Below are positions 7,531 to 51,298 of a stretch of 64,000 nt of DNA, piece by piece. A program made the translations under genes and the position numbers. Origin of the DNA: Dictyostelium discoideum (lineage: Eukaryota); contig CM000152.2 of NCBI GenBank assembly GCA_000004695.1, forward strand, positions 2,080,001-2,144,000, read 5' to 3'. Within the stretch, counting starts at the first letter, position 1, and each line of letters opens with the position of its first letter. Under the pieces are notes generated by a model, which worked only from the letters and a program-made list of their open reading frames with translations, was not told where the DNA came from and did no database searches.

Positions 7531-9153
7531 ATGACTATTAAAAATAAAATTAAAGAATTAAATAAAAATAAATTAAATAAATTAGATATTAGTGGATTAA
7601 AGATTAAAGATGGTGTACCAAAAGAATTAACAAAACCTTTATCAGATAATAAAAATGTTGTTTTAAAAATTATTGAATTGGATTTAAGTTTTAATCAAAT
7701 TAAATTCAATCAATTTATGGAAGAATATGGAAATATGTCAAATGAATTTTCAACATTAGAAATATTGAATTTATCTGGTAATCCCGAGAATGGCGGTAAC
7801 GGTTGGAATATGTCAATTATTAAATCACCACAATCAATCCAACGTTGGAATCAATTGTTAGAGTTGAATTTAAGTGGTTGTAAATTGGGTAAACTTTTAA
7901 CAAGTACAAGTTTTCAACATTTAGGAAAATTAAAGAAACTTGTAATTTCAAATACAAATTTAGAAATGATTGATGATCAAGCTTTCTCACCATTGAAATC
8001 AACATTGGAGGAATTGATTCTCGCTGGTAACTCATTACTTAAGAGCATACCAAGTTCGTTGTTAGATTGTAAACAATTGGAGGTATTGGATCTAAGTAGT
8101 TGTGGTTTAAATCAGTTACCAGATTTATTTGGTGCTTGTTTAACTTCAATTTTGGAATTAAATTTGGGTAATAATAAATTACAAGAATTACCAAATTCAA
8201 TTGGTAGAATGAAAAGATTATGCTTTTTAAATCTACAAGATAATCTAATACAAGACCTACCATTATCAATTGGTTATTGTGTTGGTTTAGGTCAATCCTC
8301 ACCTGGTATCAATATCTATGGTAATCCATTAACTAAAAATCAAGAATTAAATTTCCGTAAATCAAGAGGTGCCTCTGAAATTATGGATTATCTTGAAAAA
8401 AGAGTAACATTACATATTGGTCCTGTACCATTAGGTGGTTCAATAGCAACTCCACCTTCACCAATTACAAATAGTCGTCCACCAACTTTTGAAAAAATTA
8501 ATGATATTCGTCCACCAAGATATAGTAATATTGGTTTATCTTCTTCACCAATTTTACCTTCGTCATCATCTTCTTCATCTTCTTCACCATTATCACCATC
8601 ATCATCATCAACTCCACCATCACCACAATATAATTTAAATTCAAATGTAAATACAAATGTAAATAATAATAATAATAATAATAATAATATTTTAAATACA
8701 ACATTATTTGAAATACCTGGACCAAAACCAATTAAAGATCAAATTCAAATAATTTTACGTGTAGATATTAAAACAATAATGAAAAGAATATTTGATGCAG
8801 TTGGTTTAACAAATAATGTTTCACCATTAATTCAACAACAACAATTGGTTACAATTGGTAATACAATTACACCCGCTCAACAAGAACTTGATAAGTTATT
8901 TGCTTGTTTAGGTATTAAAACTGATCATTTCAATTTTAATTCACCAATACCTTCAAATTCTGATGAGAAAATTGTACAAATTAAAAAAATTATAAATTTG
9001 AAATTGGAAAAAATTGCACTCTTTTCAAGATCACTTTTGGAATATATTGATCATCAAAATCAATATCAATCAAATTCTCCAGATTATGATAAAAGAATTT
9101 CATTAATTTTTAATTCTTTAAATCAATTCACTTCAAAATTAAATAAAATTTAA
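7531..9153 (+). CDS. Leucine-rich repeat protein, 540 aa, with a Ser/Pro/Asn-rich central linker
   Basis: Single ORF 7531..9153. It has repeated LxxLxLxxNxL units ([69 protein letters not shown]). An A-rich stretch lies upstream and the ORF ends TAA. Confidence 0.75.
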   Translation: [540 protein letters not shown]

Positions 9154-33053: not shown

Positions 33054-33625
33054 ATTTTTTTTTTAGGAAACTACTCTTTTTTTTTTTTTTTTTTTATACC
33101 AAATTTGAGATTACAAAATTCTTTACTATTTTTTTATTTAAGTTTTATTTTTTTTTATTTTTTATTTAATTTTTATCTTTTGGGTCTTTTTTTTTTTTTT
33201 TTTTAACCCAGTAACCATATTTTTATTTTCATTAAAAATAAATAAATAAAAAAAGGGTTTAAAAAAATTCTTTTTTTTAATTTTTTTTTTTTTCATTATT
33301 ATTTTTAATTTTAAATAGATAACACTTAATATGAAATTACTAAAAAAATAGAACACCCAAAAATACACAAAATGATATAAAATATAAAAAAAATGAATGT
33401 AACCATTATTTAATGATTTTTGAATTTTTTTTTTTATTATTTTTTTTTATTAAAAAATTTATTTTTAAAATTTAATTATCCATTTTTTTTGTAATTGTTT
33501 TTTTTTTTTTTTTTTTATTTTTTTTTTTTTTATTTTGAAGAACAATGAGAATGGAATAAATTTTATATAAGAAATATATTTTTTTTGAATATTTTTATTT
33601 ATTATTTATTATTTTTTTTATTTAT

Positions 33626-34511: not shown

Positions 34512-34834
34512 AAAATAAAAAAAAATAAAAAAATAAACACACTAGTGTTGGCAAATAATCATTTAAAATTAATTTTTTCAATAAATATATATATAAATTT
34601 ATATATAAATTAAATAGTAAATGAGTGTTGGTATTCCTTAAATGGTAAATATTTATTTATAAAATTTTGAAATTTTCACTTTTTTTTTTTTTTTTTAATT
34701 TTTTTTTTTTTTTAAAAAAAATTTTTATTTTTTCTTTTTTTTCAAAATAACAAAAAAAAAAAATAAATAAATAAACAAATAATAATAATTAAAAAAGATA
34801 TTACATGTATATATAGTTTTTAAAAAACGACAAT

Positions 34835-34873
<39 letters not shown>

Positions 34874-34896
34874 ATAAATACATACATATATATAAA

Positions 34897-35170
34897 ATGT
34901 ATTTTACATTTGGATGGCCAAAAATTTATTCGAGTGAAGTTTGTGAACAATTTATAGATGTTTCACATAATTCAGATAATACATTAATAGCATTCATTGG
35001 TATAACAACATTATCATTATGGTCAGGTGAACAACATAGGGTTCAACTTGGTTATATCTCACGATCTGATGATTCGATCAATAAATTTGGTAAAAATGAA
35101 AAATTATGTTGGTCACCCGATTCTTCATCAATTGCAATTGTTGTAAGTTAATTAAAAATTTTTTTTTTAA

Positions 35171-35206
<36 letters not shown>

Positions 35207-35429
35207 ATTTTATATTAATAAATTAATAAATAAAAAAAAAAAAAGACATCACTAGGATATATTATAGTTTATAGAATTGAAAAAGAAGGTATAGATATTT
35301 TAAATTTTAAATATTATAAAGATCATCACTCATCATATCTTCAACATGATATTACGAAATATTATATTAAATTTTCATCATCATTTAGACCTTCATCATT
35401 GGGTACATTATGGTAAATATATATCAATT

Positions 35430-35472
<43 letters not shown>

Positions 35473-36027
35473 TTAACCCTTAAAGAGAATAAAATTTTTT
35501 TTATTTTTTAAAATAAATAATAATAATAATAATATTATTAAAAAGTATAACATCAAATAATGAATATATTTATATATTTACAAAAGAAGGATATTTAGTT
35601 AAATCATCATGGACAGGTGAATTAATTAGTCAATTTTCATTAGATATTGTACCATTTGATGGATTAAATGATAAAAACGATACAAATAGTGGTAGTATAC
35701 CGAGTAGTTCACCATTAGTAGTTTCAAGTGTATTTTATAATCCAATATTCTCAATATTTGGTTAAATATTTGAAAATGGTTCAAGTGCAATTTTAAAAAA
35801 GAAATCAAAAGATAAATTAAGAGGTTATTGGTTATCAAAAGAAAATTCAGTTTCAATATCATTAAATTTAAAACATAGATAAGCTGCTGTTGGTTTGAAA
35901 AAGTAAAAAAAAAAAAAAAAAAAAAATAATATTTTTGTTTTAGTTTGTTTTAGTTTTAGTTTTAGTTTTAGTTTTAGTTTTAGTTTTAGTTTTTTTTTTT
36001 TTTTTTTTTTTTAAAAACCTTAAAATT

Positions 36028-36082
<55 letters not shown>

Positions 36083-36400
36083 ATATATTAATTTTTAGTG
36101 GTGATGTATTAATTTATAAATTACCAGGACCAATAATTAAACCAAAAGGATTTCAAGGTGATATTAAAGAATTAGAGAATCAAATGAATTCATGTCAATA
36201 TTTAAGAACATTTTCATTATTACAATTTAGAGAGATAACACCAGAAGCAATTGGACCAGTATCAACAATGAGGTGGAATCATGATGATAATTGTTTAGCA
36301 GTTGGTTGGAAGAATAGAGGATTTTGTGTTTGGTCAGTTTATGGTTGTAAATATAACTTGTACAATACCACAAATGAGTAATGATGGTAATAATAATATC

Positions 36401-36465
<65 letters not shown>

Positions 36466-37449
36466 TAATAATAAATATTTAGAACCATGTAGAGATGGTG
36501 TTTTATCATTTAGTTGGGGATTAGAATCATATCATTTAATTTTATTATCAAATGATAATGATGATGGTGAATTTTTTCAATTTACATTTTTAAAAGCATC
36601 ATTAGCATCGAATCCAACATTAAATTATTCTGAGCGTATTATACTTCAAACAGAGGATAGATTAATGTTATTAAATTATAAAGGTAAAGAATTGGGTGAT
36701 ATTCGTTGGAAACATCTTCAAATTCCATCAGCATATTTAAATGATAATTGGCCAATTCGACATATAGCATTATCACGTGATAGAAATCAATATGCAGTTG
36801 CAGGTAAACGAGGTATCATTTTATATAATCAATTAAGTAAACGTTGGAAAATGTTTGGTGATAGAAATCAAGAGCAAGAAATTCAAAGTCTTTCATTGGC
36901 ATGGTATAAAAATGTGGTAATCGTTGCAAACTATTCCATTGAAACCACTAAAAAACATCAATTTCTATTCTTTCCAAAACAACATCTTGATAATTCCTCA
37001 TTATTATACTCTTATCAAATACCTCAAAACCATACACCACAACTATTAGATTGTAATGATATTCATTTAGTATTATTCACTCAAGAATCTTTCTTTTATT
37101 TATTTAGAGTTTTAGAACGTAATCAAAAAATTGAATTACATTTAGTTCATACATTATCAATGGCTGTACCATCAATACCTTTATCAATTTCATTATTACC
37201 ACCAATTCAAGTTTTATTAAATAATAATATTAATAATAATAGTAATAATAATATTAATAATAATATTATTAATAATAATATTATTAATAATAATATTATT
37301 ATTAATAATAATAATCAATCAAAATCATCTTTTATTTCTTCACCAATTAAATTAAATAGAAATAATAATACTAATACTAATAATAGTAATAATAATATAA
37401 CAAATAGTCCATCTTCTCAACAACAATTACAACAATTACAACAACAATT

Positions 37450-37535
<86 letters not shown>

Positions 37536-38521
37536 TACAACAACAACAATTACAACAACAAAAACAATTAGCATATTGTTTAATATTATATTCAAATGGT
37601 AGATTATGTTTAATAAATGCAGAGAATTCAATACAATGTGAATTATCAAATAATATTGAACAATATTGGTTTACAAATATTTATAGAGATAATGAATTAA
37701 TTGGTAATACATTATGGGCATATGGTAATTCAGGTATACAAGTTTGGTTTCCATTTTCATCGGAAGAAATTTTATCAAATAAAAATTTCAATCATAATAA
37801 ATCATTAAGTTTTAATAATGAAGTTTATCCAATTGGTTTTTTAAATGAATTGGGTGTAATTGTTGGATTAAGTCAAGGTATAAGTTATTCATCATGTTCA
37901 GTTTATCCAAATTATGAAATTCATATTAAAACTCATCCATTCCTTCATTCAATTTTAAAACATTTACTAGAGAGAGGTGGTGCTGAAAAAGCTTGGAATC
38001 TATCAAGTAAATTCTATACAATTCCTCATTTCACTCATTCTCTAGAGTTGTTACTTCATGAATTCATCTCTGAAACCGATGATTTAAAGAAACAATTTAA
38101 AATTAAATCACAATCAACCGGTCAATTAAGTCCTGCAGGTTTAAAATTAGAATATGTTATAAACTTTTTAAAGAAATTTCCACAATTTCCAGAGGTTGCA
38201 ATGCGTGCTACAAGAAAAATTGATGCTTCACTTTGGAGAGGTCTATATACAATCATTGGTGATCCTTTTATACTCTATCAAAAATGTTTATCAAATGGTA
38301 AAATTGAAATTGCTGCATCCTATTTAAAAATATTACAACATTTAAATACAAATTCAAATACTTCATTTCAAGATGATATTAGTAGAAAATGTGCAATTGA
38401 ATTATTAGAAATTTCTTTAGATTTTGATAATATTGATTTAGTTGGTGATTTAATTAGATTTTTACATACTTCTGATGAAGATAATGCAACAACTCCAAAA
38501 TTAAATAATAATAATAATTCA

Positions 38522-38552
<31 letters not shown>

Positions 38553-39025
38553 GTTATTATAATGATAATAATAATAATTTAAAAGATAATAATAAACCAA
38601 TTAAACCAACAATTTCAAAAGAATCAAAATTATTTTATAAACAATTAGATTTAATTTTATCAACTTATGCAAATAAATTATTAAAGAATAAACTATTAAG
38701 AAATTTTTTATTATTTTCAAGAAAAACACTTTGTGATGATTTATCAAATTGGTTAATCACTAAAAAGAGATCAACAATTCTTAGAACAGTTGAAGATTTA
38801 GATATGGCATTAAATTCAATTCATGTTCAATTTTATATAAATTTACCAATTGAACCAATTAATCCACCATTTTCATCACAAAGTTTATTAATGGTTTTCT
38901 CACCACAATCAAATGGTTTAGTTGGTAGTACAAGTAATACTGATTTTAATAATTTAAAACAATCTTTATCAATTGATTCTGAATTAGAAAATTTAAATAT
39001 TGATAATATTATTAATAATAATAAT

Positions 39026-39070
<45 letters not shown>

Positions 39071-39637
39071 CAATCATTACCATTATCAATATCACAAGAA
39101 CAACAAATGATTCAAAATTTATCACAATCACCACCAACAATGGTAACAAAGGATGAAATGATTGAATCACTTAAATCAAGAATTAATAATACACCATCAA
39201 AAGATCATCATGTTTCAAGTAATAGTAATGTTGTTAGTAGCGGTGGTGGTGGTGGTGGTGGCGGTAATGGTGGAGTTGTTAATTCTAGTAGTCAATATAA
39301 TTTTAGATCTCATCAATTTATGATTGCACCAACAACTTCAAATGAATATAGCGATCCATTCTTTTTAAAAGAATCAATTGAATCATCAATGGATGATCTT
39401 TATTATTTATTACAAGAATTAACAAATGCAAATTGTTATGAATGGGTATTGGTAATTGCTACAGTTTTATTAAATCCAGTTTTAATCTCAAAAACTTTAA
39501 AAAAAATACCAGATATTTATGAAAACTATTGTAAAATGTTATCACTTCAAAAACCAATTGGATATAATCAATTATTAAAATTTATTGAAGATTCAGTTTA
39601 TCCATTATTACAACAAAAATATTTAGATAAAAAATAA
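34897..39637 (+). pseudogene. RIC1 (Rab6 GEF complex subunit) homolog, multi-exon and conserved with human RIC1, but interrupted by two in-frame TAA codons (35763..35765 and 35880..35882) and a 1-nt frameshift near 36346..36352
   Basis: Exons are 34897..35142 (MYFTFGWPK…CWSPDSSSIAIV), 35246..35412 (TSLGYIIVYRI…), 35546..35902 (ITSNNEYIYIFTKEGYLVKSSWTGEL…IVPF…SIFG*IFENGSSAIL…RGYWLSKENSVSISLNLKHR*AAVGLK) and 36099..39637. In the last exon, frame A (…MRWNHDDNCLAVGWKNRGFCVWSVYGCK) switches to frame B (ITCTIPQMSNDG…EPCRDGVLSFSWGLESYHLILL…FQFTFLKASLASNP… to YPLLQQKYLDKK*). The introns are 35143..35245, 35413..35545 and 35903..36098. The flanks of each lesion align to human RIC1 ([108 protein letters not shown]). 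Confidence 0.65.
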
Positions 39638-39959
39638 TTTTTTGGAAAATATTATTTTAAAAAATTTAATTATTTCAAAATCCAATACCAAAGAATTTTC
39701 CAAAATTTATATAAACGATCAAATTTTAATAAATAAATAAAAAAAAAAAAAGAAAATTATTAAAATAATAATAATAATAATAATGATTAAAAAAAAAAAA
39801 AAATTGTCTATTTAAATTTTTATTTATTTATTTTATTTTTATTTATTTTATAATATGTTTGTGAGTCACCAATCCAATAACTTTTTTTAGGACGTGTTTA
39901 TTGTTATTTATAACTTAATTTTTTAAAATTATAAAAAAAAAAAATAAAAAAAAAAATTG

Positions 39960-40058: not shown

Positions 40059-40154
40059 ATGATAATGCTTTCTTTTATGGGATTTTTACAATCTTGTTTA
40101 TTGATTGTAAATTCCTTTGCAATCTTAAATGAAAGATTTTTAAATAAAAGTAAG

Positions 40155-40185
<31 letters not shown>

Positions 40186-40481
40186 GTTATTATTATTTAA
40201 AATTCATCTAACTTATTATTCTTATTATTATCATTATCATTATCTATTATAAAGTTGGTTGGGGTGTAAAAAGTGATTTAGATATGAACTCATTTAAAGG
40301 GAAAATAATAACATTATTACATAGTTTAAGATTCTTTTTTAGAAGTATGTTCTCAAATATTTAATAATAGTAATAAAAAATATTTATTTAATCTAACTTA
40401 CTTTTTTACGTAACCAAATATATAGTTCCTTTAGCTTTAGTTAATGCGGTTGTAATCGTTTTCCTTTTAATCTTTGGTTAA
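40059..40481 (+). CDS. Yos1 / IER3IP1 homolog (small ER-Golgi membrane protein, 78 aa), three micro-exons; it is absent from the ORF track
   Basis: Exon 1 is 40059..40149 (MIMLSFMGFLQSCLLIVNSFAILNERFLNK, followed by GTAAGT). Exon 2 is 40255..40344 (IGWGVKSDLDMNSFKGKIITLLHSLRFFFR, followed by GTATGT). Exon 3 is 40426..40481 (IPLALVNAVVIVFLLIFG, stop). Phases are 1/1 and 1/1, and the total is 237 nt. It aligns to human IER3IP1 (…LLQAALLCVNAIAVLHEERFLKNIGWG…VPLIIVNSIAIVLLLLFG). Intron 2 contains a TACTAAC-like branch site (ctaacttac). Confidence 0.7.

Positions 40482-42376: not shown

Positions 42377-42434
<58 letters not shown>

Positions 42435-50775: not shown

Positions 50776-50858
<83 letters not shown>

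Positions 50859-51232: not shown

Positions 51233-51298
<66 letters not shown>

Follow-up and report, generated by a model that had tools for sequence, protein, structure and literature searches.

The two in-frame TAA codons and the one-nucleotide frameshift that interrupt DDB_G0279477 of Dictyostelium discoideum are almost certainly miscalled bases or consensus errors in the Sanger reference of 2005 for AX4 chromosome 3, and the gene is really an intact, expressed, four-exon homolog of RIC1 encoding 1435 amino acids. The stretch that we analysed (the window, 64,000 nucleotides) is AX4 chromosome 3, positions 2,080,001-2,144,000, with an offset of 2,080,000 to the window coordinates used here. 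On the chromosome, the errors fall at chr3:2,115,764, 2,115,881 and 2,116,353, with 2,115,895 as a probable fourth. The two stops and the extra base were already recognized as reference errors in a paper published in 2017; what is new here is DNA-level support from five other assemblies, the missense discrepancy at 35895, and a patch of discrepancies, about 900 bp long, that is confined to the reference record and spills into the introns on both sides.

Conceptual translation with ordinary GT..AG splicing gives the RIC1 homolog four exons and A/T-rich introns, all on the + strand. Exon 1 (34897..35142) runs from the ATG of MYFTFGWPK, and the same boundaries on assembly GCA_054883475.1 give the annotated product of 1435 amino acids; exon 2 (35246..35412) meets its flanking introns at AG/ACATCA and ATG/GTAAAT. 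Intron 2 (35413..35545) contains a long poly-A run, and intron 3 (35903..36098) contains poly-A, a (GTTTTA)n repeat and two long poly-T runs. Between them lies exon 3 (35546..35902, 357 bp), which carries both TAA codons and a Leu/Met discrepancy. Exon 4 (36099..39637) ends in a TAA terminator at 39635-37 and is identical to GCA_054883475.1 from 36354 to the stop.

Family assignment rests on two Pfam domains. The corrected 1435-amino-acid protein scores 259.1 bits against PF25440 (Beta-prop_RIC1_2nd; curated cut-off 150, E = 9.2e-77), compared with 188.5 bits for the uncorrected translation, and residues 873-1062 score 157 bits against PF07064, the RIC1 C-terminal alpha-solenoid (curated cut-off 27, E = 4.6e-46). 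The gene model and the RIC1 assignment proposed in an earlier sequence-only reading of this DNA prove correct. The N-terminal propeller half is colinear with Ric1 of Grifola, Kockovaella and S. japonicus from the initial MY.. across the lesion region, where the fungal alignment contains the blocks ..N.K..L/I A.VG..G.V.. and LAVGW..G...WSV.G. By family assignment, the product of DDB_G0279477 would be the Ric1 subunit of the Rab6 exchange factor. It shares PF25440 and PF07064 with the RIC1/Ric1p family, the Ric1 component of the Ric1-Rgp1 Rab6 exchange factor, but differs from other members in its long poly-N and poly-Q inserts of Dictyostelium type. Literature searches on Dictyostelium RIC1/Rgp1 returned nothing relevant, functional data on the Dictyostelium protein included. 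Homology searches with the N- and C-terminal parts recovered no D. discoideum or D. purpureum RIC1 from the protein databases searched, exact look-up of the corrected 1435-amino-acid and the tiny-intron 1433-amino-acid products found no match in the protein collection, and a PDB sequence search found no match either. The closest RIC1 in the searched database, from another dictyostelid (P0001, eukprot), is modelled with ...DSSAIAIV followed directly by ...EPCREGVLSFSWG, and everything that corresponds to exons 2-4 is missing; gene prediction in this region seems to be difficult in further species as well.

In the spliced translation of the window, the first TAA (35763..35765, +) stands in the context ...YNPIFSIFG*IFENGSSAIL..., and the second (35880..35882, +) in ...SLNLKHR*AAVGLKNGDVLIYKL..., that is, ...LNLKHR*AAVGLKNGDV.... 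The reading frame then switches between ...CVWSVYGCK and ITCTIPQMSNDG, a +1 frameshift that alignment to another assembly places at a single extra A at 36353 (+), within GTAAAT[A]TAAC. The three lesions that the sequence-only reading described are thus present in the record. Its statement that homology continues on both sides of them likewise stands, for the second and third sites in fungal Ric1 and for all three in five other Dictyostelium assemblies. A further coding discrepancy, which that reading missed, lies at 35895..35897 (+), where TTG (Leu) in the window stands against ATG (Met) in each of the five other assemblies. It is probably a fourth error and, being a missense change, carries no tiny-intron flag in the dictyBase list.

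We reached the corresponding loci in other genomes through the neighbouring gene YJU2. These comprise GCA_054883475.1 (L001), a near-identical laboratory-strain assembly with a chromosome record of 6.43 Mb that also encodes the AX4 YJU2 protein; two wild D. discoideum isolates (L002 and L009); D. firmibasis (L010); and D. citrinum (L011). D. purpureum was left out of the comparison: there, YJU2 does not adjoin RIC1 and synteny is broken. Nanopore-plus-Illumina assemblies have been deposited for AX2-214 and nine wild isolates (Holland et al., PNAS 2025, PMC12745789). GCA_054883475.1 has a chromosome 3 of AX4 type and a genotype of the laboratory lineage, and AX2-214 is the sole laboratory strain in the deposited set (PMC12745789); on these two grounds, GCA_054883475.1 is presumably AX2-214.

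The annotation of GCA_054883475.1 has RIC1 as a single intact gene, and its four corresponding exons yield 1435 amino acids without a stop. Across 34700-39800, all differences between this assembly and the window fall within 35459-36353; 34700-35458 and 36354-39800, the latter with its poly-N/poly-Q microsatellites, are free of them. The coding differences are 35764 A>T, 35881 A>T, 35895 T>A and one extra A at 36353, and introns 2 and 3 differ by substitutions and by homopolymer length. The A at base 35764 and the A at base 35881 are each replaced by T in five of five other assemblies, giving TTA at the first site and TTA or TTG at the second. Both wild isolates and both sister species thus have Leu codons (TTA or TTG) at the two stop sites and ATG at 35895-97, with TTA at both stops in D. 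firmibasis. At the third site, the window reads GTAAATATAAC; GCA_054883475.1, the two wild isolates and D. citrinum read GTAAATTAAC, which is translated as GCKLTCTIPQM, and D. firmibasis has the same uninterrupted GCKLTCTIPQM frame at the protein level. The sequence-only reading had held that TTA at both stops and one nucleotide fewer in GTAAATATAAC would mean sequence error, and this is the state found in GCA_054883475.1, both wild isolates and D. citrinum (with the Leu codons TTA or TTG). Exon 3 is 95.8-98.3% identical at the protein level across D. discoideum, D. citrinum and D. firmibasis. Within it, the lesion-bearing C-terminal part SSPLVVSSVFYNPIFSIFGLIFENGSSAILKKKSKDKLRGYWLSKENSVSISLNLKHRLAAVGMK (SSPLVV...HRLAAVGMK) is 100% conserved in the three species with only synonymous variation, and the changes around the lesion sites in the other assemblies are synonymous (GGT/GGA/GGC, AGA/AGG, GCT/GCC). 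In one wild isolate, RIC1 is called as two genes of 1052 and 276 amino acids (split at L009:7635-7715), with the reading frame changing within an extended (AAT)n tract; either a real indel or a misassembled repeat could account for the split.

The lesions share their surroundings with many other discrepancies, non-coding ones included. Every difference from GCA_054883475.1 within RIC1 lies in one patch of about 900 bp (35459..36353, no strand assigned) that is private to the AX4 reference record. Intron 2 of the window has about 11 extra bases and private substitutions at 35477, 35498, 35500, 35504, 35506 and 35508; intron 3 has private substitutions at 35926, 36021, 36026 and 36028, together with homopolymer-length differences. 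We aligned the window, GCA_054883475.1 and the two wild isolates over their 21-kb overlap and counted substitutions in 18,648 gap-free columns. The window and GCA_054883475.1 jointly differ from both wild isolates at 448 of these sites, and the two therefore belong to the same NC4-derived laboratory lineage. Over the same columns, 18 substitutions are private to the window and one is private to GCA_054883475.1 (binomial, 3.8e-5). Twelve of the 18 fall at 35477-36026, within 550 bp and with indels alongside (Poisson, 6e-13); the rest of the roughly 18 kb compared holds only six more, partly clustered. The lesioned state is thus private to one record, and the near-identical assembly of the same lineage and the outgroups agree with each other. 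The sequence-only reading had argued that two precise nonsense codons and a frameshift were unlikely to be random base-calling noise. That argument does not hold, for at least twelve other discrepancies, found in the reference alone, surround the lesions, and such clustering is the look of a low-quality Sanger consensus stretch.

Smaller discrepancies occur elsewhere in the overlap. In non-coding A/T-rich DNA near an acetyltransferase gene (33182-33263), five window-private substitutions fall within 82 bp, the window having G, G, C and G where T is found elsewhere and A where G is found, with GCA_054883475.1 and both wild isolates in agreement; this is probably another low-quality reference patch. 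Just downstream of RIC1, in intergenic DNA, the window has a private C at 39870 (A in the others) and a private extra T at 39897. Nearly all remaining differences from GCA_054883475.1 across 30821-51997 are differences of homopolymer length in non-coding DNA; in each of these the reference run is the longer one, by as many as 58 bases (50778-50835; 51236-51269; 42379-42401).

The published record of this gene agrees with the genomic comparison. Singh et al. (2017, BMC Genomics 18:120, PMC5282741) reported for DDB_G0279477 two TAA-containing introns of 3 bp and one of 1 bp, among 119 sites in 102 genes, clcD being another example, at which dictyBase tiny introns bridge errors in the AX4 reference. 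Their supplementary GFF places the three on chromosome 3 at 2115762-2115766, 2115879-2115883 and 2116352-2116354, with parent DDB0349431 (PMC5282741). Each entry is wider than its intron by one base at either end; the introns themselves are 2115763-65, 2115880-82 and 2116353, which are 35763-65, 35880-82 and 36353 in the window. Our alignment flagged 36353 independently of the published 1-bp intron, and the two studies arrive at the same gene, the same three positions and the same inferred correction (TAA to TTA twice, and one spurious base). In RNA-seq reads from an experiment on dgcA mutant and wild type, for which the paper states no parent strain, TTA was found at the two stop positions in 56 of 56 and 33 of 33 reads, and 38 reads covered the 1-bp intron site (PMC5282741). 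Resequencing of AX4 lines found 1916 differences from the reference that are common to all of them (Saxer et al., 2012, PMC3466296), and the reference must therefore have errors or stock differences at roughly this density. The dictyBase 2026 paper makes no mention of corrections.

The setting of exon 3 suggests how such errors might have arisen. The introns around it contain A and T homopolymers of roughly 20-50 nt and the (GTTTTA)n repeat, and the run lengths in the reference disagree with those in all other assemblies. Sanger reads crossing these tracts would be expected to slip, through polymerase slippage, and to degrade, leaving thin coverage of poor quality; because reads slip and degrade in this way, a thin, poor consensus would be expected in the exon 3 region. 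The coding errors, which lie in exon 3 and the first part of exon 4, would then be A/T miscalls at run boundaries, with TTTAA called as TTAAA, ATTAG as ATAAG and ATTAA as ATATAA. For the four coding sites, the proposed misreads are GGTTTAATA to GGTTAAATA, AGATTAGC to AGATAAGC, GGTATGAAA to GGTTTGAAA, and AAATTAAC to AAATATAAC.

Of the three causes that the sequence-only reading had listed, assembly or consensus error in A/T-rich coding DNA is the one borne out; a pseudogene, which it placed first, and recoding are not. The pseudogene reading survives best among the alternatives, and we still consider it very improbable. It holds that the sequenced AX4 stock really carries two nonsense codons, one missense change and a 1-bp insertion, and that RIC1 is a very recent pseudogene in AX4 alone. 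The lesions do stand in the reference record, which in this respect resembles unitary pseudogenes with recent disabling mutations, with nonsense codons and a frameshift in a well-conserved open reading frame. Moreover, all contrary DNA and RNA evidence comes from non-AX4 material, the parent strain of the dgcA RNA-seq experiment being, we assume, AX2. Structural differences between AX4 and AX2 are known, among them a chromosome 2 duplication (PMC12745789).

Real inactivation would nevertheless require about 15 AX4-private changes (about 12 substitutions and several indels) in 900 bp, intronic sequence included, against only six window-private substitutions in the other ~18 kb and only one in GCA_054883475.1. 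Saxer et al. (2012, PMC3466296) measured 2.9e-11 mutations per site per generation, a rate at which a 900-bp stretch would be expected to collect about 0.003 real mutations in 1e5 generations. The changes are all of the types expected from miscalls at A/T-run boundaries beside long homopolymers, and the remaining 3.3 kb of the RIC1 open reading frame, from 36354 to the stop at 39637, is untouched. Unlike those of unitary pseudogenes, the RIC1 lesions are absent from the other genomes (L001, L002, L009, L010 and L011) and from the published RNA-seq, which reads TTA; constraint shows no sign of relaxation, the lesions are not spread along the gene, and private non-coding discrepancies lie alongside them. 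Both the dictyBase curators and Singh et al. handled the lesions as sequence errors (PMC5282741). The 65-amino-acid open reading frame terminated by the frameshift is found on no contig in the collection, which is weak evidence in the same direction. The rate and the pattern together, rather than direct observation, argue against real mutations private to the AX4 stock that was sequenced, and we infer that its DNA reads TTA and TTA without the extra A. There is only the slimmest chance that the AX4 stock really bore a cluster of mutations over ~900 bp, for example through local error-prone repair, with RIC1 lost in AX4 and not in AX2; were this so, the most widely used reference strain would be without a functional Rab6 exchange-factor subunit.

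Programmed recoding or editing, in which TAA would be read through or edited to UUA and the ribosome would shift frame at AAATATAAC, is more improbable still, to the point of being negligible. In-frame homology does continue across all three lesions, and TTA in RNA-seq set against TAA in the reference DNA could, taken alone, mimic editing (PMC5282741). However, nothing needs recoding, since Leu and an unbroken frame are already encoded in the genomic DNA of the sister laboratory strain, of both wild isolates and of the two sister species. A recoding signal should also be conserved in orthologs, yet it is absent in five of five other assemblies, and RIC1's own terminator is TAA.

Equally negligible is the idea that unusually short or non-canonical introns splice the lesions out of the mRNA: frame-preserving GT..AG pairs are possible around each lesion, and the dictyBase model annotates 3-bp and 1-bp "introns" there, but the candidates would delete residues that are 100% conserved in three species, they are weak GT..AG pairs of which none has the usual GTAAGT-type donor, RNA-seq reads span the sites with the codons retained as TTA (PMC5282741), and introns of 1-3 bp are, as Singh et al. 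argued, mechanistically impossible (PMC5282741). The sequence-only reading had rightly rejected mini-introns on the ground that they would delete conserved residues, but the sizes it gave (32-41 nt) were wrong: enumeration of frame-preserving GT..AG candidates yields 51-180 nt at the first lesion, 60 nt at the second and 10-46 nt at the third.

Four intact open reading frames of the window exactly match the AX4 proteins XP_641639 (a leucine-rich-repeat protein), roco6 (DDB_G0279417), glnA3 and YJU2 (DDB_G0279481), which puts the window on chromosome 3 of AX4. Its base composition and gene structure are in keeping with Dictyostelium, and the GFF of Singh et al. (PMC5282741) settles its exact coordinates. 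At 540 amino acids, the leucine-rich-repeat protein (7531-9153) equals ACTFIT_010521, its counterpart in GCA_054883475.1, in length but is not identical to it in sequence; the mismatch is either another reference discrepancy or a true laboratory-strain variant. Between RIC1 and YJU2, at about 40065-40481 (+), lies a small three-exon Yos1-like gene (MLSFMGFLQSCLLIVNSFAILNERFLNK / VGWGVKSDLDMNSFKGKIITLLHSLRFFFRS / VPLALVNAVVIVFLLIFG*). Both D. firmibasis (L010:9156-9585, PF08571) and D. purpureum (L012:9291-9578) have an annotated copy, and the gene is absent from the called genes of GCA_054883475.1, both wild isolates (L002 and L009) and D. citrinum.

As reference errors, the RIC1 lesions are a known artefact with housekeeping value only. 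At least four wrong bases remain in DDB_G0279477 in the AX4 reference, and the curated tiny-intron protein is missing two leucines and has Leu where all other assemblies have Met. The design of guides, primers and knock-ins, and the scoring of pseudogenes or recoding, should use the corrected TTA, TTA and ATG without the extra A. More generally, in-frame stops beside long A/T homopolymers in the AX4 reference should be held suspect until compared with newer long-read assemblies.
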